The notes under the pieces were generated by a model, which worked only from the letters and a program-made list of their open reading frames with translations, was not told the origin of the DNA and did no database searches. Positions 766-56,214 of a DNA stretch of 64,000 nucleotides are shown piece after piece. Origin of the DNA: a virus; the IMG/VR virus record IMGVR_UViG_3300048834_001178, positions 13,033 to 77,032 of that record. One strand, 5' to 3'. The translations under genes were made by a program, and so were the position numbers. Within the stretch, counting starts at the first letter, position 1. The number at the start of each line of letters is the position of its first letter.

Positions 766-908
766 CATCGACATGTCGATGACGCCCTGGCGGTTTTCTC
801 AAGATTCTTTCCGCTGCCCACGAACGCGCAACCCGCTGATTCTCAGCGGGTTGCTTCGCTTTGTAGGGGAGCCAGCGACCTGAATCTCCCGTCGCCATCG
901 ACAAGTCG
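766..908. promoter_or_regulatory. Paired operator-like sites ATCGACATGTCG (767-778, within perfect 16-bp palindrome 766-781) and ATCGACAAGTCG (897-908), flanking a 12-bp inverted repeat (828-854)
   Basis: Read directly; element 2 has ATCGAAAAGTCG twice at the equivalent positions (55472, 55578). Confidence 0.55.
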
Positions 909-912
909 CCAG

Positions 913-1017
913 TCGGGGACGACAGGCCCGCATCCCACGAAACCGCCCCGGTGAGCTCAACGCCGGACCTGTCGCTCCCCGGGGCCTTCTGGCCATGCCA
1001 GGAAGGTCCGGCCCATG
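913..1017 (+). ncRNA. Structured cis-regulatory leader RNA (pseudoknot/antisense-type switch) over the sigma-gene RBS
   Basis: Stem 945-956/974-985; loop GCCGGACCT (962-970) is complementary to AGGTCCGGC (1004-1012) just before ATG 1015; compensatory changes in the element 2 copy. Confidence 0.6.
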
Positions 1018-1536
1018 TCCACCCGCGCCATCGATCCATCCACCCTCAAGTTCGCCAAGACGCTCGTTCGCATCAAGGCCAAGCAACTCCTCCGCGTCAT
1101 CCGCGACGCCGCGACCGGCAGCCAGCAGGACCTGGAGCAGGATCTCCTGCTGGAGGTGGTTGTCCGCTGGCCCGGCTTTGATCCCAATCGCGGCAACGCC
1201 GAAGCGTTTGTCGAGAGCGTCGTCCGCGCCAAGCTCTGCAAGATGCTCCGCGATGCCAAGCGGGCCAAGCGGGTTCCGGGCCCGACCGTCAGCGCCGACG
1301 GCAGCAACGCGATCGATCCCGCCGACGATCTCCGCGTTCTGTGCATCCGCATGGATGTCGAGACCGTCATCGGCACGCTCGACGCCGTGAAGCGCAGCGT
1401 GTGCGATCAGCTGCTCCGCGAGTCGGTGACCGAGGCCGCGCGCCAGCTTCGCACGCCCCGATCCACGCTGGAGTACGCGGTGAACAGCGTCCGCGATCGC
1501 TTCGAGAAATCAGATGTTGATCAGTATTTCTCGTGA
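1015..1536 (+). CDS. ECF/sigma-70 family RNA polymerase sigma factor-like protein
   Basis: Region-2-like DLEQDLLLEV..RWPGFDPNRGNAEAFV and C-terminal HTH SVTEAARQLRTPRSTL; homolog at 55705. Confidence 0.7.
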   Translation: MSTRAIDPSTLKFAKTLVRIKAKQLLRVIRDAATGSQQDLEQDLLLEVVVRWPGFDPNRGNAEAFVESVVRAKLCKMLRDAKRAKRVPGPTVSADGSNAIDPADDLRVLCIRMDVETVIGTLDAVKRSVCDQLLRESVTEAARQLRTPRSTLEYAVNSVRDRFEKSDVDQYFS

Positions 1537-1548: not shown

Positions 1549-1568
1549 ACGGGTTAGGTGCTCTATGG
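1549..1568 (+). promoter_or_regulatory. 20-bp element ACGGGTTAGGTGCTCTATGG, candidate phage promoter (copy 1)
   Basis: Exact repeat at 15875-15894; core GGTTAGGTG also follows the sigma gene in element 2. Confidence 0.6.
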
Positions 1569-15874: not shown

Positions 15875-15894
15875 ACGGGTTAGGTGCTCTATGG
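15875..15894 (+). promoter_or_regulatory. 20-bp element ACGGGTTAGGTGCTCTATGG (copy 2), upstream of head/tail operon
   Basis: Identical to 1549-1568. Confidence 0.6.
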
Positions 15895-30579: not shown

Positions 30580-31199
30580 TTCCGAAGGTCATCTACACGG
30601 CGGACCTCATTGAGACTCCCGACAAGCAGCGGCTCACGGCGTGGCGGCACGCGTGGCAAACCATGCACCCCGAGTGGGATGTGGTGACGCTCACGCTAGA
30701 CACCAAGCCGCCGATCCTGAACTACGACCAGTGGCAGCAGACCTTCGGGCTCGCCGAGCCCGCGGCGTCCGCCGCACGGCTGAACCTGCTCCGCTACGAA
30801 GTGCTGGCCCGCGAGGGCGGCGTCTTCGTCGATCCGGACCGACTGCCGCTGCGCCCGCTCGACGAACTCGTCGCCGGGGTTGGCGCGTTCTGTTCCACGA
30901 TCGCCAGCCACGGCGCGAGCAGGCCGCACATGCTCTCGCCGTCGGTGCTCGGCGCGACGCGGAATCATCCGATGCTCTGGCACGCGATCCGCGATCTGCC
31001 GCACTCAGTGCTGGTCTATCGCGGTGTGTGGGACCAGAGCGGGCCGGGCTTCCTCACCCGCGTGGTCCGCGACCACGGGCACTTCCGCGACGTGGTGCCG
31101 TTCCACTGGGCGATCTTCGAGCAGGGCGAGGACGCCGCCAAGGCCCACGGCGGCGCGTTCGCCTTCGTGCAGGCGAAGGCTGCGGAGGTGGTGGCGTGA
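30576..31199 (+). CDS. Glycosyltransferase family 32 (DxD, OCH1-like)
   Basis: IPKVIY, NLLRYEVLAREGGVFVDPD, SGPGFLT. Confidence 0.8.
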   Translation: MIPKVIYTADLIETPDKQRLTAWRHAWQTMHPEWDVVTLTLDTKPPILNYDQWQQTFGLAEPAASAARLNLLRYEVLAREGGVFVDPDRLPLRPLDELVAGVGAFCSTIASHGASRPHMLSPSVLGATRNHPMLWHAIRDLPHSVLVYRGVWDQSGPGFLTRVVRDHGHFRDVVPFHWAIFEQGEDAAKAHGGAFAFVQAKAAEVVA

Positions 31200-31900
31200 G
31201 CACGGCCGCACGCACCACCTCAATCCCGCGGGTCCTGCACCAGATCTGGCTGGGCAAGGGCGAAATGCCGCTCAATCAGCGGCGCTGGCGGCGGCGCTTT
31301 GCCGAGATGAACCCGCACTGGGAGATGCGGCTGTGGACCGACGGCAACCTGCCGCCGATCCTCAACCGCAACGCCTGGGACGCCTGCGGCAACGTCGGCG
31401 GCACGCCCGGCTGCGTGATGCGGTCGGACATCCTGCGGCTGGAGGTACTGGCCCGGTTCGGAGGGGTCTATCTCGACACCGACGTGAAGCCGATCCGCCC
31501 GCTCGACGAGATGTGTCCGCCCGAAGTACGAGCGTGGGCTGCCTGCGAGCAACTCGACATCGTGTCCAACGCGGCGATGGGGTTCCCGCCCACCCACCCG
31601 GCGATGTGGCACGCGGTGGCGATGATCGAAGAGTCGTTCTTCGAGCGCCGGTACGTCGGTGATCAGGCGGGGCCGGGCCTGATCGCGCGGGTGGTCACCC
31701 AGTACGACGACGTGGTGCTCTATCCGCCGACGTACTTCCACCCGACGGTCGGAGAGTCGAAGTCCAATCCCGACGCAGCGAGGTTCCTTCTGGGCGCGCA
31801 CCTGTTTGCCGGGACTTGGGTTGAGGCCAATCGATGGCGGTACGCGAGCGCGTGGGACGCCAACGCACTCTCTGAGAATCCGCAAAGTCTCAGCGAATAG
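31196..31900 (+). CDS. Glycosyltransferase family 32 (DxD, OCH1-like)
   Basis: IPRVLHQIWLG, RSDILRLEVLARFGGVYLDTD, AGPGLI, HLFAGTW. Confidence 0.88.
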   Translation: MSTAARTTSIPRVLHQIWLGKGEMPLNQRRWRRRFAEMNPHWEMRLWTDGNLPPILNRNAWDACGNVGGTPGCVMRSDILRLEVLARFGGVYLDTDVKPIRPLDEMCPPEVRAWAACEQLDIVSNAAMGFPPTHPAMWHAVAMIEESFFERRYVGDQAGPGLIARVVTQYDDVVLYPPTYFHPTVGESKSNPDAARFLLGAHLFAGTWVEANRWRYASAWDANALSENPQSLSE

Positions 31901-32100
31901 CACCCCCTGGTGATCGCTGCTGATGCGCCTGTGGCTGGCACAGATCCAAGTCTAGTGAAAAGCAGGCTCGTGGTGCGGAGGGCAAACGACTCCCACGGGC
32001 CTCGCTCAAGCGCTCTACCCTTCAATCCTATCCACTCGGCGGCAGGCATGTTCGCATGCTGATCGGGTTGGTAGTACAATGGCCAGCGAGCATCTCCCGC

Positions 32101-33114
32101 ATGACACCCCCGGCAACCAAGAAACCGCGAGCAAAGACACCCAAGTCATCCCAGACTGGCACTGTTGGCCCCCGATGGCCGACCGTGGCACTGAACCCAG
32201 TTGCCACGCCAGACTCGGCATTCATGAACCGCGAGTTGCGCCGGCACGCATTCTACAGCGACGACCGGACTCTCATCTTCTGTGCGGATGCAGCGAAAGC
32301 GATTGGCTGGCTGGTCTCCGCAGGTGTGACCGTGGATACCACCGTCACTTCACCGCCCTTCTACGGCCAGCGGGACTACGGCGTCGATGGGCAAATCGGT
32401 TTGGAGTTGCACCCGTCAGAGTACCTGTCCCGTCTGGTGTCAGTCTTCCGAAAGTGCCGCGAGGTCTTCAAGGAGACCAGTAGCCTGTGGGTCAATCTTG
32501 GCGATACGTACTGGAGTGGTCGAGGCGAGCACCGCAGTGGAGAGGCCAAACAGGCAGCGAGGCGATTCGGACTTCGACCCCAGGACCGCAAGGGCGATGG
32601 GATTTGGTGCAGGCCGAAGCAACTCCTACTCATCCCACATCGTTTCGCAATCGCCATGCAGGAAGCTGACTGGATCCTCCGCAACGACAATGTGTGGGTC
32701 AAACCCAATCCGGTCCCAGACCAAGTAAGAGATCGCTGCTCGATGGGGCACGAGTATGTTTTTCACTTCGTGACCCAACGGTTCTATTACTACCGTCGCG
32801 ATAGAGTCGGTCGGCCAAACCCAGGCAAATCGCCCTTGCCACCGTTGGACGTTTGGGTGGTTCCGCCGTCCAAAGGTAGTAACGGACATCCTGCTGCGTT
32901 CTCTGCCGACTTGGTTGACCTACCGATCCGTGCGACAACTCCGCCGAATGGCGTGGTATTGGACCCGTTCGCTGGAAGCGGTACAACGGTCTTGCATGCC
33001 CGCAGGCTCGGCTTCCGCGCGATCGGCATCGACATAAAGCCGGAATACTGTAAGGCGATGGCCGCAGCCTGCCAAAAGGACCCACCGATTCTGCTGCCGC
33101 TCTCTGAGAAGTGA
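32101..33114 (+). CDS. N4-cytosine/N6-adenine DNA methyltransferase (beta class); start uncertain
   Basis: VTSPPFYGQRDY, WVNLGDTY, HPAAF, VLDPFAGSGTT. Confidence 0.9.
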   Translation: MTPPATKKPRAKTPKSSQTGTVGPRWPTVALNPVATPDSAFMNRELRRHAFYSDDRTLIFCADAAKAIGWLVSAGVTVDTTVTSPPFYGQRDYGVDGQIGLELHPSEYLSRLVSVFRKCREVFKETSSLWVNLGDTYWSGRGEHRSGEAKQAARRFGLRPQDRKGDGIWCRPKQLLLIPHRFAIAMQEADWILRNDNVWVKPNPVPDQVRDRCSMGHEYVFHFVTQRFYYYRRDRVGRPNPGKSPLPPLDVWVVPPSKGSNGHPAAFSADLVDLPIRATTPPNGVVLDPFAGSGTTVLHARRLGFRAIGIDIKPEYCKAMAAACQKDPPILLPLSEK

Positions 33115-33135
33115 TGCGACTGGAGACAATTGACC

Positions 33136-35154
33136 ATGGGCACGTTTCTCAATGCGGACACTATCAGAATCGCGGTTCGTCGGCTCGGCGACTCGCTCGC
33201 GCAGACGGGAATGCATGATTTCCTCGTGCTCAAGCGCGCTTCGGTGCTCAGCAAGTCACCGAAGGTGGTTCTCTCGGAACGAAACCAGCCATTCATGCAG
33301 GCGATTGAGCAATTGACTTCGTGCAATGAACCATTGGGCGCCGCTCTCGACGCCTCATGGAATCTGCCACCATTCATAAATGTGTTCGGTACGGCTAAGC
33401 ACAGCAAAGGACCGTTCCGTTCCGCCAAGTTCACTTCGAACGGACCGGCTGACACCGTGAGCAAGTCGCGTCCGTGGCAAGCCCTGGTGGAAGTGCACGA
33501 CGAGCGCCCGAGATCCGTTACGTTTCGTCGCGACTATCTACAGCACGCTAAGTCCGTCCTGCTCAAGGCACAGTCACCGAGTGATGAACTCCCGCGACTC
33601 TCCGATGCGGCGATCTGGTTCTTCCGTGCATCCGACATCTCTGCGCTCGCAGCATCGAAGGATCGGAACAGCATTCTCGGTGGCATGGTACGCGCATTCG
33701 TGGATGCCCTGCACCTCACCAAAGAAGAAGTAGCACTCCTCTTTGTTGATGCTAACGCTCTGGACGCGTCGGTCTATCCCGAAGTGCTTACCTCCGACTC
33801 CGTCGCGTCGCCGATCTCGTACCTTACCCTAGGTAGCGTCGAAGCAACTCCCGTGACCGAGACTGCTGGCAAGGTGTCATGGGATCTCGCCGTCTCCCTT
33901 GCCGCCAAAGAGTTCATAATTCTGACGGGCCTCTCGGGCACTGGAAAAACCCGCGGAGCAATCCGGCTCAGCGCGGCAGTTACCGCTGGAGCCGCCCAAC
34001 CGGTCGAGTTGATCCCAGTTGCCGCGGACTGGAACGACTCCCGTCCTCTCCTTGGGTATCGCCATCCATTCGGTCGTACGATAAATGAGGCTGGCCAAAG
34101 CGCCCTGGCAGACACCTACGAGATCACGCCCGCGCTGCGCCTTGTTTTGCGAGCGAGTCACCCGGACAGTGAGCGGATTCCACACTTTCTGATTCTGGAC
34201 GAGATGAACCTCTCGCACGTCGAGCGCTACTTCAGTCCAGTACTTTCCCTTCTCGAAGCGGCGCGAAGCACGTCGAGGGCGAGCACTATCCCGCTGATTC
34301 CAGCAGCCGATACCCAGTTAATCGCTTCGGTGTTGCAGCGTGAGAATCCGAACTCTCTTGAAGCAAAGGCCGCCTCAATCCAAGCCGCACAGGGGGCCGG
34401 GATTGGCATTCCGGGCAATCTGTTCATCGTTGGCACAGTGAATGTGGACGAAACTACCTACATGTTTTCGCCCAAGGTGCTGGACCGTGCCCATGTAATC
34501 GAGGTGGCTTCGATATCGCCGCTCGAGTTTGTGACAGGAACAGGATCCGCCGAGGAGTTGGTTTCGGCATCCGCCGCGCTGGAACTGCTCCAGTGGTCAA
34601 TCGAGCGGCGAGACGAGTCGGAGCGGACAGACGGCGCGGTGGATCTGCTGGAGTCAGTTCATACGGATTCTGGACTAGATCCAGCGGTACTCGATGCCAT
34701 CAAGAATGCTTTGAAGTGCGCGCTCGAAGGATCGCATGTTCTGCTTGGTCCGATCGGCTTCGGCTTGGGATATAGAGTGGTTCGCGAGTGCTTTGACTAC
34801 GTCGCAACGTGCCTTCGACTGGCGGTGATCGCAGAGTGGACTCCAGAGCAGATTCAAGCCGCCTGGCACCATTGGATAGACCGGGCGATTCTGCAGAAAG
34901 TGTTGCCAAAGCTCCACGGCAACCGGCTTCAGTTGACCGGGCCCCTCACTGCCACAATAGCCTTCTTTTCTGGCGGAACGGCCATCACGGAACCTCGCGC
35001 GGCATATCAGATGGCTGGTGGCAATGAGGTGGGCGTAGACGAATCGCTCAAGCTCACCTTCGGTTCGCCTACCGCTCTTCCTCTCTGTATCAAGAAGCTG
35101 TCTCGCATGCTGTGGCGTGTTGAAACCACCGGATACGCGGGGTTTATAGAGTGA
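33136..35154 (+). CDS. mcrB: McrB-family AAA+ GTPase with unknown N-terminal domain
   Basis: ILTGLSGTGKT, ILDEMNLSHVERYFS, GTVNVDETTYMFSPKVLDRA, QKVLPKLHG. Confidence 0.88.
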   Translation: MGTFLNADTIRIAVRRLGDSLAQTGMHDFLVLKRASVLSKSPKVVLSERNQPFMQAIEQLTSCNEPLGAALDASWNLPPFINVFGTAKHSKGPFRSAKFTSNGPADTVSKSRPWQALVEVHDERPRSVTFRRDYLQHAKSVLLKAQSPSDELPRLSDAAIWFFRASDISALAASKDRNSILGGMVRAFVDALHLTKEEVALLFVDANALDASVYPEVLTSDSVASPISYLTLGSVEATPVTETAGKVSWDLAVSLAAKEFIILTGLSGTGKTRGAIRLSAAVTAGAAQPVELIPVAADWNDSRPLLGYRHPFGRTINEAGQSALADTYEITPALRLVLRASHPDSERIPHFLILDEMNLSHVERYFSPVLSLLEAARSTSRASTIPLIPAADTQLIASVLQRENPNSLEAKAASIQAAQGAGIGIPGNLFIVGTVNVDETTYMFSPKVLDRAHVIEVASISPLEFVTGTGSAEELVSASAALELLQWSIERRDESERTDGAVDLLESVHTDSGLDPAVLDAIKNALKCALEGSHVLLGPIGFGLGYRVVRECFDYVATCLRLAVIAEWTPEQIQAAWHHWIDRAILQKVLPKLHGNRLQLTGPLTATIAFFSGGTAITEPRAAYQMAGGNEVGVDESLKLTFGSPTALPLCIKKLSRMLWRVETTGYAGFIE

Positions 35155-37094
35155 CCGCAGTCACGTGCCTTCATCGTGTGCGATTTGGCTGGCCCAACGG
35201 CACGTCTCTTGACATCGAGTGGGCCTCGGGTGATGAGGGCCCGGCTCATCCGCTGTCGGCACTATCTCATTCGATCACGGGTTGGATCGAACGCCTGCCC
35301 GATCAGCTCAGTATTGCGGGTATTCCGGCACTGTCTGTCGATCAGGGGCAGCCATCGAGCCTCTTCGAGCCAGTGCGGCTTCGCGAACAGACCGACTACA
35401 CGTTAGACTTTCGTATTCGCGCGAGTCTTCCAGAGGCCACGACTGCGTGGCAGGCCAATCCGTCGTGGCCGTTGCCTGCTCGGTTCAATGGCGTTTATCG
35501 AACGCAGGCACCTCGTCGGTGGATGGTTGACGGCGAGTTTCTTCGAGTCGGTGGCGCCTTAAACTTCGGGTCATTCGTAGGCGTGGCGCACTTGGAGCTG
35601 CCAGACGGAGCGTGCGTTCCGGTCGAAGTCATCTGTACTAAGATCGGATATGTAGACGACTTTCGAGCATTGCTTGAGCAGGTGGGGCACGAGGTTGTCG
35701 AGCTGCTCTTGACTGTGGGAACTCCCACGGGAATACCGCTTGCGACGTCCGGCGAGCTGAGCGCATCGCCACTCGCATTTTTGTTTCACTTGCGTTCTCT
35801 CCTCGCTTCCCGAGAACTGCCTGATGCGATCGAGTCGATTCTCAGGCGGCCGCATGAGCGCATAGTTGAAGACCGCAAGGAAGCGTTTGTGTGGGAATTC
35901 CGACATCCCGATGTGGCGGCGATGTCCCGTGCGGCTGAGTATCTTCCAGATGTCAGTTTCAGTGCGAGTAGGCCGGTCTGTCTCCCAGTGCCGCTCAGGT
36001 ATCACGGTCGCAGCCGCTCGGTGTCGAGGGACACGCAAGAGAATCGATACGTTAAGGCACTTCTGCAGGATATTGTGAGGCGAGCGGACATCTGTGTTGG
36101 CCAGCTTCGCGAGGCAGGCAGCCTAACAGCCATGCGCGAGCTTGTTAGTCATGTGGATCGCATGCGAGAATGGTTGTCGCGCCCCCTGTGGAGGGAGGTG
36201 GGCCCTTTTAGGCAGATGCCGACAAACTCGCAAGTACTGCAACGTCGATCCGACTATCGACGTGTCTTTGACGCAGACATGCGCTTACACCTTGGACTTA
36301 GATTGCCGTGGCTTCCAACCACAAATGACGCGGATAGCATCTTGGGCGACATGCGGCCGATTGACGTTCTGTATGAATATTGGTGCTTCCTGGTGATTCG
36401 GAGACTTGTGGCGTCGATCTGCGGAGCGACGATCGAGCCCCTGGACAGTCTCCTTGTACGCTCAATGAATGGCCTTAGCCTTCAACTGGTGCGCGGCAAG
36501 CAAAGCAAGACTGTGTTTCGGTTGGCAATCGCAGGGAAGGCTCCATTCCAAGTGGAGCTGTACTTCAATCGGCACTTTGCAGGTGTCGCCGGCGCAGTTG
36601 AGGGAAGGTCTTACTCCGTTGGCTTGCGGCCCGACATCAGCCTTTGTGTGGAACGCATTCAGGCGGGTACGATTGGTGCACGGCACTGGCTTCACTTCGA
36701 CGCAAAGTACCGGCGAGAGATCGATGTGGCGGCATTAGTAAGCGCGACGCAGGAGTCCTCGGGTGGGCCCGAGTCGTGCATAAAGATCGAAGAGACCTAC
36801 AAGCGGGCCGACTTGTACAAGATGCACGCGTACCGTGATGCGATTCTCTCGACTCGAGGCGCGTATGCGCTGTTCCCTTCGCTAGGTGGAGGCGAGGCTC
36901 TGTTTGTCCGAGGTGCATCCATCGCAGGCGCAAAGTTGCCGAGCGTAGGGATGTTCCCATTGAGTCCTGCGCGGGCAGTGGACCAAGAGCAACCCTTGCG
37001 GAGATTTCTATCGGCGGTGTTGTCTCAGATCTCCGATGCGTCGCGAGTGGTTGATGAATACCTTGGCCCATGCCCGCCAATGACCTCAACGTAG
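35151..37094 (+). CDS. McrC-like DUF2357 + PD-(D/E)XK nuclease
   Basis: DTQENRYVK, LYEYWCF, RPDISL..HFDAKYR, DLYKMHAYRDAI; coupled to mcrB. Confidence 0.85.
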   Translation: MTAVTCLHRVRFGWPNGTSLDIEWASGDEGPAHPLSALSHSITGWIERLPDQLSIAGIPALSVDQGQPSSLFEPVRLREQTDYTLDFRIRASLPEATTAWQANPSWPLPARFNGVYRTQAPRRWMVDGEFLRVGGALNFGSFVGVAHLELPDGACVPVEVICTKIGYVDDFRALLEQVGHEVVELLLTVGTPTGIPLATSGELSASPLAFLFHLRSLLASRELPDAIESILRRPHERIVEDRKEAFVWEFRHPDVAAMSRAAEYLPDVSFSASRPVCLPVPLRYHGRSRSVSRDTQENRYVKALLQDIVRRADICVGQLREAGSLTAMRELVSHVDRMREWLSRPLWREVGPFRQMPTNSQVLQRRSDYRRVFDADMRLHLGLRLPWLPTTNDADSILGDMRPIDVLYEYWCFLVIRRLVASICGATIEPLDSLLVRSMNGLSLQLVRGKQSKTVFRLAIAGKAPFQVELYFNRHFAGVAGAVEGRSYSVGLRPDISLCVERIQAGTIGARHWLHFDAKYRREIDVAALVSATQESSGGPESCIKIEETYKRADLYKMHAYRDAILSTRGAYALFPSLGGGEALFVRGASIAGAKLPSVGMFPLSPARAVDQEQPLRRFLSAVLSQISDASRVVDEYLGPCPPMTST

Positions 37095-39028
37095 TCTCGG
37101 CCCTTCGCGATGGCCGTGAGCACACCAGCGGCGTTGCTATGCGGAGACACTTGAAGCACCAGGGTGTCAATCGCGCGAGTCATCGGAATCATGCCCCATC
37201 GCGCGGAAAACCGGTCGGCAACCTCCTGCTGAGTCTCGAACAAATCCTTCGGTCGCCGCAGCCCCTCCTCAAGCTGTCGCTGCAGCAGACGGTCAAAGTC
37301 AAGGCAGACAACAGTCCACCCCTCCAGCCCGCGGCACGATTCGTACTTAACGATTCGAAACTGTTGCACATTCTCAGGAAACGTGTCCCTGTTGGCGGCG
37401 ATCGAGCCGTCCCACACCTGCTCGCCCCATTGCTGAAGGGTTGCTCCGATGCCTGTACTTGTGGAGCCAGAGCTTCCCGTCACACAGAACAGTGCATCGA
37501 CCTGCCGATTGCCGGCAGCCTGATGCTCGCCCATGATCCTGCTGTGCACTTGTTGGGTGTACGGTCCCACCACCACAATCACGCGGCCACCGAGTACCTC
37601 ATCGTTTATCGCCATATCCCACTCAAGGTGGGAAGCAGCAACGAACGCCTCAACAAACGCGCAGATATTTGCCTTGAGACGTAGCGACTTGCGTAGCGGA
37701 ACAATCTGCCGGGATTCGGTCGGGGCGAGCAACGTCCAATCACACCGCCCGTCGCGTCGCACGAGCTGGTCAACTCCATCCGCGACAATGATCCGGTTGG
37801 GTCCGAACAGTGCACCCAGAATGTCCCGCTCTTCTGTCGGCCAATCCTGTGCCTCGTCAATGAGCACGAAGTCCCAGTTGAACAACGACGGATGAGCCTT
37901 CCAAGCCTCCTCCTGCTGAAGCGTCTCTCTGGATTCGCCCGCAAATAGCTCTCGAAGTACCAGCTTCTTCGCTTGAAACTCCTCTGCGGGGAACGGCTCA
38001 CCCTCTTGGATGGGCGGAGCTTCGCCCCAGGCGGACATCAACTCCCAAAAGAATCTCTCGCTGGTACGAATGCTGACCGTAGGGTCGTCGAGATTCTCGC
38101 GAATTCCCATGAGGTGCATTAGACGGCGCAAGTCCGATGCGAGAGCGCGGTTGTACGTGAGGAACAGGACTCGCGCGCCGCGGTCTTCTCTCAGACGGTT
38201 GGCGAGCTGCAGAAGTCGCACGGTCTTCCCCGATCCACCTCGCCCGCGGAAGATCAAGAGCTGGCTTCCCAGCTTCTTCATGTATTCTGGAAGCTCGGGT
38301 TCGACGGTGCGCTTGGTAATGCGCTCGATCTTCTGACGGTCTAGAGGCGACGCCTCGATACGTCGTGTGAAGATGTCAATCGCGTTCTTCACCTCGGTCG
38401 CGGCATCATCGCGACCACAGCGAACAAATGAGTTTTGCCAGGGCTTGTGCAGGTCCCGTTTGATGTCCTCGTGCCGCTGGTTGACGATTGCCCGCAGGAA
38501 GTCCTTGGCGGTCACGTCAGCGCCCAGGATATTGCTTTGAACCTTGGGCAATGCTCGAGCTGGGACGTTCCTCAACCACAGGGCCGAAAGCCAGAAGGGC
38601 GACCGAAAGCCCTGGCGCTCGACATACGTCTTGAGAGAGTGCACCTGCTTGAGAGTCTGGTCTGTGGCACCGTGCCACTCCACCTGCCCGTTCGCTCGAT
38701 TGATGTAACGGACAAGTACTTGATTGCCCTCAAACCGGATGGCCTCTGGAGGGTGGCCTTTGACCTCGATCGCGATGGCGAAGTTGGACAACCGCGCCGG
38801 CCGACTGCGCAGTTCCTCGGCGAGCAGTTCTTCTGGAATGGGGACCACGCCCGTGCAGACCCCGAGGACCAGCAAGTCGGTGTCCTGGACCTGGCAGCCG
38901 GGCGTAAATGCGCCCACCACAATGCGGACGTCTCCGCGTTCTCCGATCAACTCTTCAAGCGCCGGACGAAGAGCGAGCGCGGCCTTGTAGTTGTCGCTGG
39001 AGGTGTCGCCAAAGATCGAGACGCCCAT
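37025..39028 (-). CDS. NERD-like nuclease fused to SF1 (UvrD-like) helicase/ATPase
   Basis: DTDLLVL..IEVKGH..Q; RGRGGSGKT, LTYNRALA, LIDEAQD, RGLEGW, MTRAIDTL. Confidence 0.8.
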   Translation of the reverse strand: MGVSIFGDTSSDNYKAALALRPALEELIGERGDVRIVVGAFTPGCQVQDTDLLVLGVCTGVVPIPEELLAEELRSRPARLSNFAIAIEVKGHPPEAIRFEGNQVLVRYINRANGQVEWHGATDQTLKQVHSLKTYVERQGFRSPFWLSALWLRNVPARALPKVQSNILGADVTAKDFLRAIVNQRHEDIKRDLHKPWQNSFVRCGRDDAATEVKNAIDIFTRRIEASPLDRQKIERITKRTVEPELPEYMKKLGSQLLIFRGRGGSGKTVRLLQLANRLREDRGARVLFLTYNRALASDLRRLMHLMGIRENLDDPTVSIRTSERFFWELMSAWGEAPPIQEGEPFPAEEFQAKKLVLRELFAGESRETLQQEEAWKAHPSLFNWDFVLIDEAQDWPTEERDILGALFGPNRIIVADGVDQLVRRDGRCDWTLLAPTESRQIVPLRKSLRLKANICAFVEAFVAASHLEWDMAINDEVLGGRVIVVVGPYTQQVHSRIMGEHQAAGNRQVDALFCVTGSSGSTSTGIGATLQQWGEQVWDGSIAANRDTFPENVQQFRIVKYESCRGLEGWTVVCLDFDRLLQRQLEEGLRRPKDLFETQQEVADRFSARWGMIPMTRAIDTLVLQVSPHSNAAGVLTAIAKGRDYVEVIGGHGPRYSSTTRDASEI

Positions 39029-39047
39029 GGATGCTCGCCTGTTCCTT

Positions 39048-42000
39048 TCACTGCGCCGCGATGTCTCCGGGACGCCGGCCGACCCGGTACGGATTTACCG
39101 AGCGAACGCCCGGCCCGTACGAAGATCTAGCTGCTTGCAGCACCGGGTGCGACTCGATCCAGAGTGGGTGCGACTCAATGAGGATCACTCCATCCTTCAC
39201 AAACCGCCTTCCGCTGCCCTCGTCCGAAGGAGTGAACCCGAAAGCCCGTGCGGGGCCGGCCAACACGTCACCACCTCCCTCGACCAGGCGCAACCAAGGG
39301 TTTTCGAGTCCTTCACGGATGGGCGTCCTCAGATCAACCGTTGTGGCAGCGCCGTCGCGCAAAATGCGGAGCATGTCGAAGCCCATCCGCCAGTCCAACA
39401 GTCCGTGGTACGGAAGATTGCCATACTCCCGAAGGCATCGGGGGCACGATGCACCGCACCCGCCAGCGTGCTCAGAGGAGACCCACGCCGGCCCGCCGGC
39501 CGGAGAGCCCATTGCCATCTCGAACGCGCACTGCAAGAGGGCCTGAAACTGCTGCGGCTCGCCGAGGCGGGAGCAGTAGCCGGCACCGTTCTCGAGGCAG
39601 TCGCACAAAAAGGCCTGCGCGCGGACGGCGCCCGGCTGGCCATATGTCCGGATACCCACGTCGATCTCACTCGAGCGAATGTCCAGCAGGATGGCGGCCG
39701 CCTTGCGTAACAGGAAGGCGAGGGAGTACCAAGCCGCGCGCCCCTCGGGCCTTCGCGGATCTGCGAGCACACCCTCCGGCCAAGCCCCTATGTCGACGAG
39801 AAGCACGTCAGTGCGCCGACGGTCGAGCAGGGCCAGCCTGTGGCCGGGGCCGATCTGTTGCCCGAAGTTGTGGAACCCCGAGTCGTTGCTGGTTGTGTCA
39901 TCGAACACCGCCCAAGCAGCTCTGCCGTCCTGCTGTACGGGGTTCTGCCAGCGCAGAAGTGTGGAGGGCTGAAAATCAAAGCCACCCGCGCCACCATTGT
40001 CGTTGAGCGTGACAATGCGGTCGCTCACTACGGCCACGTCAGCGTGGGTGCCCGGGATCCTCGTCGTTTGTGGGACAACACTCAACGAGAGCGACGGCTT
40101 GGTCGCTCGGGGAAAGAACTCGAAAAGACCGTCGTAGTCGCGCGGTGAGAAGTTCGAGAAGAAGCCGGTGGGCTCACGGGCATCAATGAACTGGAACTCC
40201 TGCTCACCACAAACGGGGCAGTTCGACTTCGCGGGCGGCGAGCCGGAAGCGGGAGGATCCACTCTTGTGGGTCCGTAGCCCAAGTGTTGGCAGGCCGCAC
40301 AGCGACCGATCGTGACGTTTGGCTCGCCGATAGCCGGCACAAAGCCGGGCTTGGCCATTAGCTGATCTCCGACCGGCACGAGTCGAACAACGCCAGCGGC
40401 AGTGTGTACCCGCTTGTCTTTGACGGTTTCGCTTCCGGGTGCAAACTGCCCAATCGCGATGTCCAGTGCCCGATCGACAGTTCCGTGCTCCGGTGGCCAC
40501 GGCATCGCGCGAGTGGGCAGTTGGGTATGTAGCAGCCGAATCCTGGTTGGAAATCCGAACATGGGTAGCACGCCTGCGTGCGCCAACCGCTCACTCAAGG
40601 CTTCCTGAGTCAAGGTCGGATCCGCGACAAACCCGTCAATGGCAGGCGGCAATTGGCTTTGAACCCAGCTGACTTCGGAATCAAGGAATGAAGACAACTC
40701 GGTCGGCAGGGTGAGCCGCATCCTCGCAGCAAGCACCTCGGCAGCCGACCGCAGTGCGGCTCCGTGTCCAGCCATCCAGGCGATGAGGTCTGCTCTCTCG
40801 CCGGTCCAGTCCGCCGCGTCACCAAACTCACCGTGAACACTCTCGCCAGCGACAGGAGGTTGGCCGGCGCGCGCTGCCCGGAAAGCCTGTCGAAGGCACT
40901 CTTCCGTCAGAACGCGACGGAAAATGGCGCGATTGGTGGGATCGATGAAGGGAGGCGGCGGCCTGTCGCCCGTTATCTTCTCCGCGTGCTCAAAGTAGTA
41001 TGCGTCGTGCGAGCGGCCTCGGCAGAGCGTAACCGCGAGCGAGACTCCAGCACCACGCCTGCCTGCTCTGCCCACACGCTGCTGGTAGTTGAACCGCTCA
41101 GGCGGCATGTTTGCGAGCATGACCGACAAGAGTGCGCCGATGTCAACTCCCGCCTCCATCGTGGTGGTCACGCTAAGTAGGTCGATTCCGTCAACCTGAG
41201 GCAGTTCACCCGGAACAAACACGTCCTGAAACCGGCGTTGGCGGTCGGGCTTGTCTTCCTGGTCTGTTTGGCCACTGAGCTCCTCAGCGTGGAGTCGAAA
41301 TGCTTGGCGACGGTCGTCCGCAAGATATGCGAAATAGTCGCTGGCTGATGGACCGTTGCGAGCTGGCTCCGCCTGCAGCCGGCCTCCGCACTCCACACAG
41401 CGACCATTCCCGCGAGCGAAATAGCCAGACCTGCATTGGCTGCACCGGTTGACGATACCGTCCGTCGGCGGCGTCAGATCAAGCATCAGCTTTTCCGGGT
41501 CGAGACCGGGCTTCTTCTCTGTTGGAAGCGCATCGCCGGGGACTAGCACCTGCGATTGCAGCAGAAGAGCCTCGACGGCAGCGCATTGCGCAGCGTCATT
41601 CATGTACGCGGTGGCCCAGGACTTTGGTCCGCTGGGCAGCCCGGGTGCGGCGTTGCCCTGCTCAAAGTACGCAGCGCCAACGTAGTTGCGGCGGAGAGCG
41701 AGACGCCGGATCACCGATTCGGCACAACCCAGATGCTCGGCACTCTGCCCTGCGATCGACGCGATAGTCACACGGCCGAGCCCCAACCCCTCAAACGTGC
41801 GGGCGCGGTGGGGAAAGAGCACGTACATGATCTCGGCCATGAGACCCCGTCGCATTCTCGTCAGATGCGCATCGAACAGGCCACTATTCTGGCCCCAACG
41901 CTCCCTTGCACGCGGGCCCGACCAATCGAAACACTCGGGCCACGAATAGTCCCGTCTGGACTGTGCGTCGCGCCATGACAGAACGTCGCTGCCGCAACCG

Positions 42001-44840
42001 CCGGGACAGATTCCCATTGCCAACAGACGCTGCCACAGGATCTCGCAGAGCATGTTGATCGGGAACCGAGTCGGATAATTGCGCAACAGAACGCCACCTT
42101 CAGTGCCTGGATCTGAGGCGTCACCGTCGAGCCAATCCCTTAGCTGGTTTGCCGCAACCTGGAACCGTTCGCGAAACAGGTCTCGAAACGGACGGTCAGC
42201 ATCCGATCGCGGCAGATCCAGGGCAGTTGCAAAGGCTGGATTCGCTGCCTTTACAAGTGATCGCCGAGGCTCTTCCTCGCGACACTCAAACCGGACGAAG
42301 GACTCGAGTACGGTCCGGAGCTGCCGCGTGCCGCGCACGAGTTCCCCTCGCACAACATCGCGGAAGTGGTCTTGCTCGATGCCCGCCGAGAGTTTCGCTG
42401 CATCGCCGCGGCTGTCAGAGAACACAACCAGCTTCCGAGCACTCTTGCTGGCGATCTGAGCTGGCAGTTCACGGAGCAATGCCCCTGCAATCACCTGCGC
42501 TGCCTTGCTGAAGCCCGTTCGATGGTTGCGTAGCGGACTCTTCAGCCCGTGCTGGCGTTTGCGGAAGTCCGCATCGCAACGAGGACACTTGTGCGGGAGG
42601 GCTTGTGCCGCGAGAGCGACCTGTCCGCCCCGGGTCGCCTGCCAGAGCCAGGCATTGGCCCCACGGGTGCCGGCTGTGTGGTGCACGTAGCCGCTCCGTT
42701 GATCGAAATTCACCTGTCGCCAACTGCACGCAACACCCTGATTTGTCCAGCCGGTATCGAGCGGGGTCTGATCGCTTGGCCACAGCAACCAATATCGGGC
42801 GTGAGTTTGCTGCTGTGCCGCACGGTCAGGAAGTCCTTCCAAGTCGGGTTCGTCCGCAGTAAGGAAGTCCCGGTCGGCACCATTGACTTGCGTCTTGCGT
42901 CGGTGGCCGCCGAGGAGCACATCACCGCACACTTCACAGACAACGACCTCCAACACGCGGCTCCCGCAGTCCGGACAGGCCAGTGACGGCGCACCGAGCA
43001 GCTTTCCGACCCGGGGACGCTCGGGTCCCCGGAACTCTTGAGGTACGCCTGGGCACGCCGCATTGGTACACGCCCAAAGGTTGCTGAGGTTGTCGAAGAA
43101 GATGTGACCACGGACCGGCTGCAATGATCGACCGGGGTTGGAGGGATCTTCCGCGACCGCAAGCGCAAGCAGTAGTCCACGAAGCGATCGACTTGGCTCA
43201 TCGCGATCGGCTCCATCTCGACGGAGCCGCTGCGCGTCTGTGCCAAAGATCCTGTCGTCCACGCGGAGCACGTCGGTGGCGCGAACATTTGAAAGCGTGC
43301 CGGGAGTCTCGAAGTGTTCGTCGCAGGCCGCACGGAGTGCTTCGTGGGCGCCGATGCTACAGAGCGAGCGACCTAGACGGAGCTTGGCACTTCCAGGTTC
43401 CGGTGATGCGCCGGTTAACTCCACCGCGAGCTGCTCTGCGGCGCGAGTGAGTTCATCGGATTGAACCTCAGGCGGCTCAAGGGTCGCCAATGGATCCGCC
43501 TGTACCCGGTCAGCAAAAGTGGCGAGAGCTTCTGCGGCATGACGCACTCTCGATAGTCCTTCGCGCCGCGGCGAAGTTTGATCAGCAGATATTGGAGCGG
43601 CGAATCGATCCGGATCGCGACCGAAGAAGTGCTCCAGGAATCTGTGGGACTCATCTTCCGTTCCAAGGCTTGCCGAGGTGGCCACGATCCGAAGCTGGTC
43701 CGGCCGCCGCGTAAGCCCGAGCCGCTCAAGGAGCAGACGAATCACATACGCCACTTCTGTTCCCGCCGAACCGCGATATGCATGAAGCTCGTCCACTACG
43801 AGAAAGAACGTATGGTCTGGCGATCGCTCAATCCACATCCGCGTCGCATCCCACATATCGTTCTCTGCTGATCGCATGAGAGCAATATTCAGCATCGAGT
43901 AGTTTGTGATAAGCACGTCCGGCGGCGTCGCCTGCATGTCCCAGCGAGACCAAAGCTCCGCTCCTGCGGCGTCCTGCATGAAGTACCTTAGCTCGGGATC
44001 GAGCTTGCGCGCCTCTCCACGCCGAGCGCGATCGTCATCCTGGGATAGCAGCTGGTCGAGTTGATCGCTCGCGGCAGCCATGCTTCGCAGCCGCGGCCTG
44101 AGCTTGTCAGAGAGTTTTCTGGCCTGACTTGCATCGCCGACGCGGTCGGGGCGTGGACCAGCAACTGGTGTGAGGCCGGTGTAGCGACCGAATGTCACCC
44201 GGTTGCCGCCCCGCGCCGTGTCGAGCCAGCGTCGAGTAGTCGGTGCTTCGAGACACTGGCGGAGCCGACGCAACTGGTCTTCGACCAGAGCATTTAGTGG
44301 ATAGAGGATCATCCCACGGACTGCATGTTGGTCGGCAGCAGCCCGTCCCGTCCGTCCCCACTGTTGCTCCCAGACACCGGCTGAATCAAACCATCGCCGC
44401 GGCGCTGCCTCAGGAGTGCTCGCCCGCCACTGGCGGCTCTCCGCGGCGATGGTCGCCAGCAGTGGCAGAAGGAAGCACTCCGTCTTGCCCGAGCCCGTGC
44501 CGGTCGTGACGACGATGTCCTTGCGCTGGAGGATTACGGCTTCGAGCGATTGCCACTGGTGACGATAAAGCGTCCGACCCTCCCCAAAGATCGGGCTGGC
44601 CAAACCCGCAAGGTCCTGCATGCCCGCACCCAAACGTGCACTTGCCTGGGCAAGCGTAAGGCCCGACGACTCGTAGACCGGCGTCGGTTCCAGCAGCAGC
44701 GGCCGCGATACTGATAGGCGTCCCTGGAGCAAGCGTGCTCGCTCAGCAGCAAGCAGTGGGCTTGAAAGTGGGAAGGCGGACTGAAGATAGAGTTCATAGA
44801 CGCGCTTGAGGCGAAGCGCCGAGCCAACGGCGTCGATCAT
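39048..44840 (-). CDS. Large SF2 helicase with DUF1998 (Druantia DruE-like)
   Basis: [64 protein letters not shown]-terminal [19 protein letters not shown]; ATG at 44840 overlaps the upstream stop. Confidence 0.88.
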
Positions 44841-46198
44841 GACGAGGCCCCCTCTGCAGAGATGTTCTCGAGTGCGACTTCCAGTTTGGGGGCCAACGAG
44901 CGTGCGATGTCGCTCGCAGCAGCGAACAACCTGCCCTTGCCCGGAACCCAGGATGGGAGCTTGCCGGTCGCGAGCACCAACGGACGCTCGTAAACCCTTG
45001 GCCACGGCTGGTCGACCGGAATGATGAAATCGCTGTCGCAACAAAAAGCTCGGAGGCCAGACGATCGCTGTGCCAAGTAGCTCATGCCATACCAGTCACA
45101 ACGCGTCCAAGCACCGGCCCCGTCGCAGTAGGCCCGAACGACGGTGGTGTAGCCATGACGGAAGGTCAGGCGGTAAAGCCCTTCGCCCACCGTCAGTTTG
45201 CCGTTGGACATTTCTGGCCGGACAGTCGCTGCTTGACCTTCAACGGCCAATCTCTCGACGGCCTCAGTCGCGGCAAGATCCGGGTGGTAGCTGTTGCGCA
45301 CGTTTGCGTACCACAGGTCCCAGGTGGGGAAATGGGCAGCGAGTTGCCTGCATGCATCCCCAATCAGTGGAATCTGCACGGCACCGATCGTCACTGACCG
45401 AGTCGCCAACTGCTCAGTGCTCGGTGAGAGCGTCACAATCGTTGGGCCGCCGCGTTGTGGCAGGCGTTCCATGGGCAATACTGCAGCGAGCTGCTCGAGC
45501 AGACGGTTGCAGCGTTGGCCACACAAGAACCAACCACCGCGAACGTCGCCGACGATCACAGGGGGAGTCACCGCCCACCGGTTGCCGTCCGCCGATACCT
45601 CGATGTGCCCGAGGAGTTGAAGGCGTCCAAGCACATCTCCAGTCTTCGTTGAAGCGTCCAGTCCAAGCGAGCGGCAGGCATCAGCGAACTGGGTCCAGGT
45701 GCCTGACACCTGAACCGAGAGCCATGCCAAGAGGCGATCGAACCTGATCGTGACTGCTTGGTTTTCCACCGCTTCGGTCGCCCGAGCCTCTGCATCTCTG
45801 GCAGACTCAACGTCCGCGGGATCGGGTGGCGGCGCTCGCTCGATGTGCAGAATTGGATCCCCGCTGACGAGCGATTCCTGCGTCCAGTTCACGGCCTGCG
45901 CTTCAGGTAAGACCGAGCGGGATACGTCTCCGGGCGAGATGAGCCGAAACCCGAGTCGCTCGACGAACGGCTCTGCATCAAATGGGGGTTCCGGCACGGT
46001 CGCTCCCCCGTGCGGACGTGGATCCGCAAAGCCGATCGCGCAGTAGACGCCATTGCCAGTCCTAACCCGTCCCCAGGATTTCTCCAGACGTATTGAGTCA
46101 ATCTCCTGCAGACATCCGAGGCGGCGCGCAGTCTCTCGAATTCGGGATGGCAGGTCACCACGTTTGGTCAGTTGCCCCACGAGGTACCAGGTACTCAT
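44837..46198 (-). CDS. Hypothetical defence protein (Druantia accessory-like)
   Basis: Translationally coupled to the DUF1998 helicase; [19 protein letters not shown] and [13 protein letters not shown] recall Druantia partner proteins (from memory). Confidence 0.6.
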
Positions 46199-48024: not shown

Positions 48025-49083
48025 AGTCCTAGTCCTTCCAGACGAACCCGGGTCTGCCGTGGTGCACAAAGGAAGTGGCCATCGGCGATGTGGGAGTTTA
48101 TGGCCTGTTGGGGGGGAGGTGACGCACAGACGATTTCCATTCGCACATCCGAACATCTCCCTTCCGCGACTCCCACGTAATCGTCGCCCACTCTTGTGCC
48201 GCGTCTCGTACTGTGGACAAAGCGGGGGGACCGGCATTGTGCACTCAACATGGCGGTCGACTCCCTCACTTCGCAAAATGGCGCTTCGGGCGGTCGCGAG
48301 CACAGCCTCTTCACGCACAGCTTTCGTGAGAGTCTGCAGGGGAAGCTCGAGGGACTTCTGACACGCCCAACCGTCGCGAAGAGCCGCAGCGTGCGGTGCT
48401 CGTGGTCACGCTGTTTAACCCCGTGCGACAGAAGCCCGTACACGACGAGGTTGTGAGAGCGATGCGGACGTCTCGGTGGTCCACCTTTGATCTTCAGGTC
48501 AGTCCGCGGATTCAGGCTCGGGCACGCGGTTAGTGGTCGATCTTGACGCCCGTGGCCAAGCAGAGCCAAATCTGGCTCGAGAATGCGGTTGCCGAACTGA
48601 TCATCCATCACCAGGCCAGATTTCGATGGCTCCGTTTACCCGGAGATCCTCCGGACCGCTTCCCAAAGCCGCCTCGGACTCTCTCTGGGCAGTCGGAGGC
48701 ACTAACGACTCCCGAAAGCATGCCGAGTTCGAGACACCCATCCGATCGGAGTTTGCAGGGCCCTGCCTTTCCGGCGGGGCCCTCTTTGTTGTCTGGATCG
48801 GCTCGGAACGGCGTGCCCAAGCCGGAGGCGTTGCTCAGACCGAAGTGGCGGTTTCTCGGGGAATTGGGGGGCGTTCGGGCGTCCCAAGAATTGGCCGACG
48901 CAGCGGGATCGATTCTCGGTTCGTGGCGATTGCCGAACCCGTCGGTCGAGACCGCCGACCGTTGGTCTCGCACCGTCCGCCCGGACTCTCGAACTCTCGG
49001 TTTCTCGTGTTGGCGCGGATTCTGGTGAACAGCCCTGTTCCGAGCGCACCCTCGGACCGGCGCGAACTCGGTAGCATGGCCCC

Positions 49084-50211: not shown

Positions 50212-50355
50212 CAGCTCATCGATGGCTCATGATGTTCCACCCGGATCGGCAGGGCGTGCCGCGGACATGCGAGACGCTGAAGTTCGTTAACCAGCCAGTA
50301 TTCCGGTTAGTTGTCCCCTGAAGGCCCCTTGGGTTTGGCCTTCCGAGGACACCAG

Positions 50356-53112: not shown

Positions 53113-53305
53113 CCCAATCTTCTTGTAATACAAGAGTCATTCGCGTACGGCCGCATTCGAGGTGGAAGTGGCATGCGAGTAATTACCCAAGCCAGCCGTC
53201 AAGTTTGGCATAATCCTCGCAGCCGTTGGCGCGCCCAACGCGATGTTGGAGCAGTATTCTCGTGTTGACAGGGGTATACACTCAGGCCCAAGGAGGATTC
53301 GCTCC

Positions 53306-54466: not shown

Positions 54467-55472
54467 GCAGTTGGGCAGCTGGACAGCCAGAAAGTGCGAG
54501 TGGCGGCACCTGTTGGGTGACGAGTTCGAGGACGTATGTCAATTGCTTCTTCCGGAGCCGGAACTCGCATCGGTTATTCGGCTGCCAGGGCGACGCGAGT
54601 GGCTTCAGGTCGTCTCGCACAGCGACGAAGAACACGTGGCGATTGATCCCGACGAGCCGGAGCCAATCCCTATTGCCCGTGATGACTTGCTTCTATGGAC
54701 GCTTCCAAGCGAGCGGATCTTGGAGCAGGTGATGGGAGCGGTTCCACTTGCGGGCAGTTTGCACAGGATCCCTGATGCGATCACGGTATGGAGAACCGGG
54801 GAGTTGCGCCGGGACGGAAGGAAGATTCCTGCCTACGCATCGCTGGCGATGACGCCGAAGTCGATTGCTTCCGACATCGCGCACATCCGTCAGCTGGCTT
54901 CGGGAGCGTTCATCGTGATGACGCTGCTCGATGATCTACCGCCACTGTCACTGCAGATCATTCAGTCAAAGGCGTCAGCGTGGGTTCGCGTGGATGAGGC
55001 ATTCTCGTGGCAGAGTCCGGGTGTGCTGTGGTGCCGGGATCCCTTCACGGAGCACTTGCCCGATTCGATGCGCCAGCGAGCATCGAGCGCGGACAGATCG
55101 AGCGATCGAGTTTCGATCCCGGTCCCGAAAGAAACTTGCTGGCCTGACGTACAGATGCGCATCGCAGGGACAGACGCAATCACGGTCATCATTCACGGTG
55201 CTTCCGAACAATTGACGCCAGAGCAGTTGGGTCTACTAGACACACGAAGCGGGAGTCCGAAGAAGGCTTGGGTTGAGCTCGGGCGCCTAATTTACGAAGG
55301 CGGATCGCTCAAGGTGGCGGCTGTAGTGGCATCAGGGCGGCAGCGCCAGTTTCAGCACCTTGGGAAAGCGCTGGCGGCGTACTTTCGGATACCTAGCAAA
55401 CCGATCCAATGGAACCGGGGTCAGGTTACTGCTCAGTTCCGCTGTTTGCCCCCCGAAGGCGACAGCGACTAA
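54444..55472 (+). CDS. Conserved hypothetical protein; homolog of 67-762, possible regulator
   Basis: Shared C-terminal motifs and synteny with element 1. Confidence 0.7.
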   Translation: MQVGKALEQLGSWTARKCEWRHLLGDEFEDVCQLLLPEPELASVIRLPGRREWLQVVSHSDEEHVAIDPDEPEPIPIARDDLLLWTLPSERILEQVMGAVPLAGSLHRIPDAITVWRTGELRRDGRKIPAYASLAMTPKSIASDIAHIRQLASGAFIVMTLLDDLPPLSLQIIQSKASAWVRVDEAFSWQSPGVLWCRDPFTEHLPDSMRQRASSADRSSDRVSIPVPKETCWPDVQMRIAGTDAITVIIHGASEQLTPEQLGLLDTRSGSPKKAWVELGRLIYEGGSLKVAAVVASGRQRQFQHLGKALAAYFRIPSKPIQWNRGQVTAQFRCLPPEGDSD

Positions 55473-55589
55473 TCGAAAAGTCGAAACCAGAATTCGATAT
55501 TGTCGAAGATTCCAAGTTGCATAAGTGTCCTATCAGCATGGGCTTACGATACTGAACTCCTACTGCCTCATCGTCAAATCGAAAAGTCG
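55472..55589. promoter_or_regulatory. Paired operator-like sites ATCGAAAAGTCG (55472-55483, 55578-55589)
   Basis: Exact 12-bp repeat at the same location as the element 1 ATCGACAWGTCG pair. Confidence 0.55.
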
Positions 55590-55595
55590 CACAGA

Positions 55596-55707
55596 GCGAG
55601 GATGACGGGCACGGCAAGCGCTGTCATCTTCGCCCCGGGGAACTCATGCCGAGCCCGATGTTCCCCGGGGCTCTTTATGGCCTACGGCCAAAAGGGCTCG
55701 GCACATG
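55596..55707 (+). ncRNA. Structured leader RNA over the sigma-gene RBS (second copy)
   Basis: Perfect 12-bp stem 55632-55643/55660-55671; loop TGCCGAGCCC (55647-55656) complementary to GGGCTCGGCA (55694-55703) before ATG 55705. Confidence 0.6.
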
Positions 55708-56214
55708 GCATTCGACCAGATCCCCCTCCCCACTTCGTTCGCCCAGAAGGTCGCCCGCATCCTTGCGGCCCGGCACGCCCGTCCGGCTTATCGCGAGGAC
55801 TTCGCTGCCGAGATTCTCACCGAGGTCGTCGTTCGCTGGCCGGGTTACGCCGCACAGCGGGGCTCTCCCGAGGCGTACATCGAGGTGGTCTGCCGCAGCA
55901 AGGTGGCCAAACTCGTTCGGGACGGCCGCGCCCAGAAGCGGACCACCGACGCGCCGACGGTCGCGATGGACAGCGTTGACGCCACGGCCGATGCCGCTCC
56001 GTTCCAGCCGTGGGAGATTGGCCACGACGTTGCGGCTGTGCTGGCGATGCTGCCGCCCGAGCTCCGTGCGATGTGCGAGGCCGTGATGCGGGCCGAGTCC
56101 CTCTCGATGGCGGCCCGAGCGGTCGATGAGCCCCGCTCCACGCTGGATTCGAAGCTTGGCCAGCTCCGGCCCCTCTTCGACCGCGCCGGACTCCGGGATT
56201 ATCTCGTGAAGTGA
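55705..56214 (+). CDS. ECF/sigma-70 family sigma factor-like protein
   Basis: EVVVRWPG..RGSPEAYIE; SLSMAARAVDEPRSTL; homolog of 1015-1536. Confidence 0.7.
   Translation: MAFDQIPLPTSFAQKVARILAARHARPAYREDFAAEILTEVVVRWPGYAAQRGSPEAYIEVVCRSKVAKLVRDGRAQKRTTDAPTVAMDSVDATADAAPFQPWEIGHDVAAVLAMLPPELRAMCEAVMRAESLSMAARAVDEPRSTLDSKLGQLRPLFDRAGLRDYLVK

Follow-up and report, generated by a model that had tools for sequence, protein, structure and literature searches.

The DNA analysed here, called the window throughout, is a stretch of 64,000 nucleotides that forms part of a 77-kb IMG/VR record. It carries two related elements, el1 and el2, with a common gene order: a large serine recombinase, two ORFs, a leader, a sigma-like gene of about 170 codons, a small ORF, and replication genes that in both cases encode a DUF669 SSB, a helicase and a primase-polymerase. 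Element 1 further carries Sak4, ParB, a methylase and a terminase. Some 20 kb of DNA of lower GC content (about 31000-50000; 0.58-0.63 versus 0.66-0.71 in el1) separate the two, and the record therefore does not consist of two strictly tandem phages, as the original prediction had supposed. The genes and the promoter-like motif on which the analysis centres are as follows.

1015..1536, plus strand: ECF-type sigma factor gene P0001 of el1, 173 aa (Pfam, TIGR02937, fold)
1550..1560, plus strand: CGGGTTAGGTG motif, candidate promoter for the phage sigma factor (motif match)
55705..56214, plus strand: sigma-like gene P0002 of el2, 169 aa, its product 36% identical to P0001

The assignment of the downstream gene to the sigma factors, proposed from the sequence at the outset, holds up. 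Pfam Sigma70_r2 recognizes P0001 with 26.2 bits (cut-off 24) and P0002 with just 16.5 bits, TIGR02937 aligns with residues 16-161 of the sigma at 32 bits, which is below its cut-off, and the AF2 model (pLDDT 76) has as its top Foldseek matches in the PDB exclusively ECF sigmas, over about 165 columns. Judged by the region 2 match, the sub-threshold full-length match and the AlphaFold/Foldseek comparison, P0001 is an ECF-type sigma factor. Three relatives of P0002 are present in the protein database (P0003, P0004 and P0005, with 99%, 71% and 66% identity, respectively).

The motif C(C/G)GGTTAG(G/T)TG occurs at 1550-1560, 15876-15886, 50303-50313 and 56223-56233, with five matches found against 1.9 expected. 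These GGTTAGGTG motifs lie directly 3' of both sigma genes and also ahead of the virion operon and of the el2 recombinase operon, and the sequence is a candidate promoter element that may be read by the phage sigma factor. No CI/Cro-type switch is recognizable in these phages, and the sigma gene appears to be their master switch. Between its recombinase and its sigma leader, each element has two ORFs of about 230-400 aa in the same orientation (1-762 together with 11616-12791 of L096 for the el1 type; 53243-55472 in el2). They have no match in Pfam, PHROGs or NCBIfam and are candidates for a lysogeny or repressor function.

A three-hairpin leader precedes both sigma genes

The 5' leader of the sigma gene, about 110 nt long, has the features of a structured regulatory RNA with three hairpins, H1, H2 and H3. 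In el1 its parts are:

828..864, plus strand: intrinsic terminator of the gene upstream (12-bp stem and T-rich tail)
903..1014, plus strand: conserved leader RNA (hits of covariance model R1; alignments A3 and A6)
916..936, plus strand: H1, weak here (GGGA/TCCC), with 7 bp in relatives; the H1 loop displays site 1
920..931, plus strand: site 1, an imperfect upstream complement of the H2 loop (CGACAGG with CCTGTCG)
945..985, plus strand: H2, with pairs changed on both sides and G·U intermediates among relatives
962..970, plus strand: anti-start-site segment of the H2 loop, GCCGGACCT, complementary to the start region
989..1001, plus strand: H3 (989-993/997-1001), with all five pairs compensated
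1000..1017, plus strand: translation initiation region, comprising the Shine-Dalgarno sequence (SD) AGGAAGG at 1000-1006, the target AGGTCCGGC and the ATG

The corresponding parts of el2 are:

55590..55704, plus strand: leader RNA (R1 81.6 bits; fold z = -4.4)
55598..55631, plus strand: H1, 11 bp (55598-55608/55621-55631), with site 1 in its loop
55606..55616, plus strand: site 1, CGGGCACGGCA, the upstream copy of the target
55632..55671, plus strand: H2, a perfect 12 bp (55632-55643/55660-55671)
55678..55690, plus strand: H3 (55678-55682/55686-55690; fold and sequence)
55694..55707, plus strand: target GGGCTCGGCA and ATG, complementary to the loop

In both elements, H2 is a 12-bp GC-rich hairpin that bears the loop complementary to the start site. 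The el1 stem (945-956/974-985) is paired at 11 of its 12 positions, U952·C978 being the one mismatch, and closes a 17-nt loop in which 962-970 is an exact 9-nt complement of 1004-1012; this target shares the last three bases of the SD and ends 2 nt 5' of the ATG at 1015. In el2 the loop sequence TGCCGAGCCC (55647-55656) is a perfect 10-nt complement of 55694-55703, ending 1 nt 5' of the ATG at 55705. H3 is located between H2 and the target in each case, and the spacing of the complementary sites differs (38.5/42 nt in el1, 40.5/47 nt in el2). An alternative pairing is available upstream: in el1, a helix of 914-926 with 968-981 can form (13 bp, one bulge) and is chosen in the minimum free energy (MFE) fold. 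H3 can likewise be extended to 982-992/998-1009, a form that is able to cover the SD. All four pairings originally described, namely the H2 stem, the complement between loop and pre-ATG segment, H3 and the alternative upstream helix, are thus present in the sequence of both elements; the U952·C978 mismatch in the el1 stem had gone unmentioned, and the positions given for el2 were off by one.

The leader is an island of conservation among phage relatives

About 30 distinct leader sequences were collected from Phycisphaerales MAGs (one Tepidisphaera genome included), IMG/VR contigs and wastewater or activated-sludge assemblies, and covariance model R1 retrieved further diverged leaders from order- and family-level genomes. 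The sigma family itself is present in 96 of the 401 genomes of the host family that were sampled. Relative to el1, the leaders are 83-95% identical, the sigma coding sequences 64-81% and the upstream DNA 30-67%. By this comparison the leader is an island of conservation, better preserved than the coding sequences that flank it. In the roughly 30 relatives the loop and its targets are almost unchanged, even though identity among the sigma proteins falls to about 45%. Further leaders of the el2 type were found neither in IMG/VR nor in the genus-level covariance-model search, and two hits of the model, L141 and L142, were discarded because they fall inside coding sequence.

More distant ECF homologues, at about 30% identity, bear other leaders. 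One such group (L021, L044, L057, L071 and L073, from Planctomycetota genomes and IMG/VR, with sigmas about 30% identical) shares a different conserved leader, in which a long hairpin with GTCGTTGAGGGTGTCGCC...GGCGA is followed by TCGGCACCCAYCGCAC and the SD is enclosed in a hairpin formed locally. In L073, a 9-nt segment located 57 nt upstream is complementary to the start region. A third sigma subgroup from host-family genomes (L164-L172 and L174), whose proteins start MKI..., has its own conserved leader of nested GC hairpins (CGCGGCC...GCGCCTCGGCGC...GGCTGCG) followed by GAAAGAACCA and the ATG. A complement of the start site is not evident in these third-subgroup leaders.

Compensatory changes maintain the pairing of the H2 loop with the start site

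Covariation was counted on the model-guided alignment A6, with slid controls. As predicted from the two elements of the window, the helices covary across homologues, with compensatory and G·U changes in the approximately 30 leaders and far lower values in the slid controls. H2 and H3 have strong backing from such changes in this alignment: five pairs of H2 are changed on both sides, with G·U intermediates, all five pairs of H3 are changed on both sides, and every slid control for either stem is far lower. L139 and L140 have wholly re-paired both stems (GAGCGC/GCGCUC in H2, GCUCG/CGAGC in H3) and kept the loop and targets. For H1, compensatory and G·U changes are found among L055, L145, L010 and el2.

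The helix between the loop and the start site is maintained in the same manner. All three internal substitutions that distinguish el1 from el2 are compensated. L146 and L161, in which the spacer is shorter and the loop is changed, have a perfect 14-bp helix (TCCATGCCGGACCT/AGGTCCGGCATGGA) that extends through the AUG, L125 and L159 have gained one A-U pair, and a C-to-U change in the target of L158 yields a G·U pair. The upstream helix formed with site 1 (CGACAGG/CCTGTCG in el1) is compensated in el2 and in L143 (GACGGG/CCCGUC) and contains a G·U pair in L160. Some leaders depart from the pattern: one mismatch in L011 is uncompensated, the terminal pair is frequently open, L160 lacks H3, and the more distant L143 and L163, which keep the context of H2 or H3, are without a clear complement between loop and start site. 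The loops of L143 and L163 differ as well, and el2 alone combines a re-specified loop with targets to match.

When the downstream segment or the loop was shuffled, a complement of this length arose in 0.03-0.1% of the el1 trials and in 0.35-0.7% of those with el2, figures in which the position of the complement at the ATG is left out. The cognate duplexes have predicted energies of -20.0 and -23.1 kcal/mol and the cross pairs -11.4 and -12.2 kcal/mol, so that cross-pairing between el1 and el2 is 8-12 kcal/mol weaker than cognate pairing. At this locus, evolution has thus maintained the pairing of a hairpin loop with the SD and the start codon of its own mRNA.

These patterns also bear on whether RNA is the relevant molecule at all. 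The repeats are inverted and direct repeats in the DNA too, and operator-like palindromes lie directly upstream, as might be expected of operators, recombination sites or replication sites, or of a chance pattern in GC-rich DNA. However, the G·U-type changes in H1, H2, the target helix and the upstream helix keep RNA pairs and break DNA symmetry, which fixes the plus strand and points to RNA rather than DNA as the level at which pairing is maintained. Added to this, the spacing between sites varies between el1 and el2, each site lies within a hairpin loop, and shuffles rarely reproduce the complements. We consider an explanation at the DNA level or by chance to be very improbable.

Two predicted conformations occlude the start site

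Nested folding yields a second state in which the SD is hidden, made up of the extended H3 together with the pairing of 914-926 and 968-981, and equivalents of the extended H3 exist in el2 and L163. The leader is therefore predicted to have two mutually exclusive conformations, both of which occlude the start site. In the nested ensemble the start region is unpaired with a value of 0.30, as compared with 0.40-0.43 in controls with a shuffled upstream part; accessibility falls just weakly below the controls because pseudoknots are absent from nested folding. A closing helix between the 5' end of the leader and the start region also appears in MFE folds and was not counted, since its register differs by type.

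That both conformations are predicted to be OFF suggests an external activator, as would be expected if the leader responded to a ligand or a protein. It could then be an H-type pseudoknot resembling a riboswitch, or a site recognized by an RNA-binding protein of the phage, with a factor that stabilizes or opens the SD-sequestering fold and with the conserved loop and junction bases as recognition elements. SD-sequestering pseudoknots are typical of the SAM-II and preQ1-II riboswitches, and the loop, site 1 and the 5' block GCCAGTCG are more conserved than pairing would require. On the other hand, el2 swaps most of the "conserved" bases for compensated alternatives, Rfam contains no matching riboswitch, and we know of no precedent for a metabolite input to a phage sigma factor. 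A leader of this kind is accordingly improbable in our estimation.

Several other arrangements were considered for the region. A terminator scan returned a single site, at 828-854 in the gene upstream's terminator, and none at or after H2, and we rejected H2 as an intrinsic terminator or attenuator. The sequences following H2 (CUUCUGG, UCUUUAU, CCCCGCU and CUCGGCC) contain no U-tract. A leader peptide was likewise rejected, since neither the ATG (995) nor the GTG (951) is at a position conserved among relatives. Contigs from RNA libraries (four of six runs; short, depth 2-4, unstranded) cover 862-1014, 753-993 and 906-1027 as well as other phage genes, and at this low depth they reveal no ends and no enrichment at the leader.

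Operator-like palindromes diversify while the RNA loop stays constant

Upstream of the leader lies a pair of operator-like sites:

767..780, plus strand: O1 of el1, a perfect 14-bp palindrome, with a phage-specific copy at the same place in related loci
897..908, plus strand: O2 of el1, the second copy, flush against the conserved leader on its 5' side
55472..55483, plus strand: O1 of el2, an operator-like copy
55578..55589, plus strand: O2 of el2, an operator-like copy

O1 and O2 are 105-135 nt apart and recur at corresponding positions in about 20 related loci, O2 adjoining the leader. They are often perfect palindromes, of 14 bp in el1 and of 16 bp in L139 and L143, and their sequence is phage-specific: at least eight types occur, and the RNA loop meanwhile stays constant. 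Judging from this pattern, O1 and O2 are probably the operators of a repressor and the true carriers of immunity specificity.

This observation is central to how the likeness of the leader to known immunity RNAs should be read. The P4 CI RNA (seqB against seqA and seqC) and the P1 C4 RNA use a looped sequence with upstream and downstream targets for immunity. By analogy, H1-H2 might be released as a stable small RNA through processing or termination and act in trans on the start site and on site 1 of both resident and superinfecting genomes, in which case the differing loops of el1 and el2 would confer heteroimmunity. Much about the leader is compatible with such a scheme. One loop faces an imperfect complement upstream and a perfect, RBS-overlapping complement downstream, which is the topology of P4 seqA-seqB-seqC and of P1 a1b1-a'b'-a2b2; two related prophages with weakly cross-pairing loops reside in one genome; and the 12-bp stem of H2 has the length of an acceptor-plus-T minihelix.

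Other features are hard to reconcile with it. If RNA pairing were the determinant of immunity, the loop would be expected to diversify and the operators would not. What we find is a single loop shared by about 30 phages that have diverged sigmas and at least eight operator types, the opposite of diversifying immunity selection. The proposal that the loop defines immunity groups therefore fits the relatives poorly, and a three-way structural constraint accounts better than a diversifying immunity determinant for a loop that is nearly invariant while operators change. There is, moreover, no conserved CCA-like 3' tail, no U-tract after H2 and, for the el1 loop, no second target elsewhere in the 64-kb window. 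The 10-mer of the el2 loop does have an exact match at 53072; it is within a coding region and was taken as chance. The Rfam C4 model (RF01695) has no match even at E <= 10. We give trans action less weight because about 30 phages with diverged sigmas and re-paired stems have a loop and a pair of targets that are virtually identical, and we regard it as a serious possibility that is nonetheless unlikely. Its more specific form is a shade less likely still: that in these temperate phages of Planctomycetota H1-H2 is cut from the leader and blocks translation of the master sigma in trans, with rare re-specification, as in el2, allowing co-residence.

Discussion

Our analysis points to a translational gate on the sigma gene. 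The reading that we favor, with modest confidence, is that the leader acts as such a gate in which the H2 loop pairs in cis with the SD, the spacer and the AUG, and in which the imperfect upstream copy competes for the loop. The apical loop of H2 would serve as an anti-start-site sequence that pairs with the 3' part of the SD and the spacer, and in some relatives with the AUG too; the resulting H-type pseudoknot would block binding of the 30S subunit and leave the sigma untranslated. A second lock may be provided by the extended H3, in which the start region would instead pair with the base of H2 and the linker. Site 1, an imperfect target copy located within the H1 loop or beside it, may occupy the H2 loop and, as a competitor, set or switch the share of messages that are open. 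Cis and trans action predict identical covariation, and the co-residence of el1 and el2 with weak cross-pairing is compatible with models of either kind. Since sigma-type promoter motifs lie ahead of the replication and virion operons, a gate on sigma translation would also gate lytic development. Taken at face value, the conserved architecture suggests that the leader most likely keeps the lytic programme of the phage off at the level of translation.

The leader has clear parallels among characterized systems. It would work like the known SD-sequestering pseudoknot leaders and is laid out like P4 CI and P1 c4, in front of another type of gene and in another phylum. With the SAM-II and preQ1-II platforms and the leader of T4 gene 32 it shares the pairing of a loop with the SD or start region, which gives an H-type pseudoknot that blocks initiation and is kept by covariation; repression in the present case is predicted from sequence. 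Unlike those leaders, it has an extra upstream decoy of the target and a second, mutually exclusive hairpin that hides the SD, and no ligand or autoregulatory protein is known for it. The resemblance to phage sigma-factor cascades is of a different sort. There, as here, a phage sigma with its own promoter motif ahead of later operons is a developmental master switch, and the difference lies in the structured translational gate on the sigma gene. For a temperate phage, we know of no description of a sigma gene gated in this way.

The layouts with which we compare the leader are those of P4 seqA/seqB/seqC and P1 c4 (Citron & Schuster 1990; Forti et al. 1995; Hartmann et al. 1995) in the passages of PMC2864571 and PMC5499578 that cite this work. 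As in P4 CI, a single recognition sequence is flanked by upstream and downstream complements in the same leader transcript, in el1, el2 and their relatives alike, and what is controlled is entry into the lytic or replicative programme of a temperate element. P4 CI, however, belongs to an enterobacterial satellite and is a processed trans-acting RNA of about 79 nt by which transcription of the replication operon is terminated prematurely. In the present leader, no signal for processing or intrinsic termination is seen at or after H2, the targeted sequence coincides in part with the SD and AUG of a gene for an ECF-type sigma, Planctomycetota are the hosts, and sequence or covariance-model similarity to P4 CI is absent. 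The parallel with c4 of P1 and P7 (RF01695; a1b1 upstream, a2b2 at the icd RBS) extends to a loop whose complements are a site overlapping the RBS and a duplicate of that site further upstream, and to two related elements that differ by compensated changes in loop and targets. In contrast to the present leader, c4 has two loops, is cut out by RNase P as a stable RNA of about 77 nt that acts in trans to confer immunity, and represses the icd-ant antirepressor with Rho polarity. The leader described here has one loop, nearly invariant among relatives, and a sigma gene downstream, and the Rfam model does not match it. Of the proposed kinship with P4 CI and P1 C4, then, the three-site layout stands and the match to the C4 family does not.

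The expectation that no described family would fit was borne out. Rfam 15, C4 included, gave no meaningful match when the whole window was searched at the gathering score and both leaders at E <= 10, and a literature search did not turn up a description of such a leader. Because the motif is well defined (model R1, about 30 sequences and several covarying helices) and has no Rfam family, it can be deposited and is directly testable. Its three-site design offers a compact natural case for comparing control by a cis pseudoknot with control by a trans antisense RNA, and the 8-12 kcal/mol that separate the specificities of el1 and el2 make a possible orthogonal translational switch.

The leader also has implications for the biology of the phages that carry it, which are temperate phages of Phycisphaerales (Planctomycetota), a host phylum whose phage biology is almost unexplored. 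Should the trans-acting reading prove true, it would extend RNA-based phage immunity for the first time beyond Proteobacteria, and for the first time to a sigma factor. As the sigma appears to be the master switch of these phages and they lack a recognizable CI/Cro pair, an RNA lock on its start site would be central to their decision between lysis and lysogeny.
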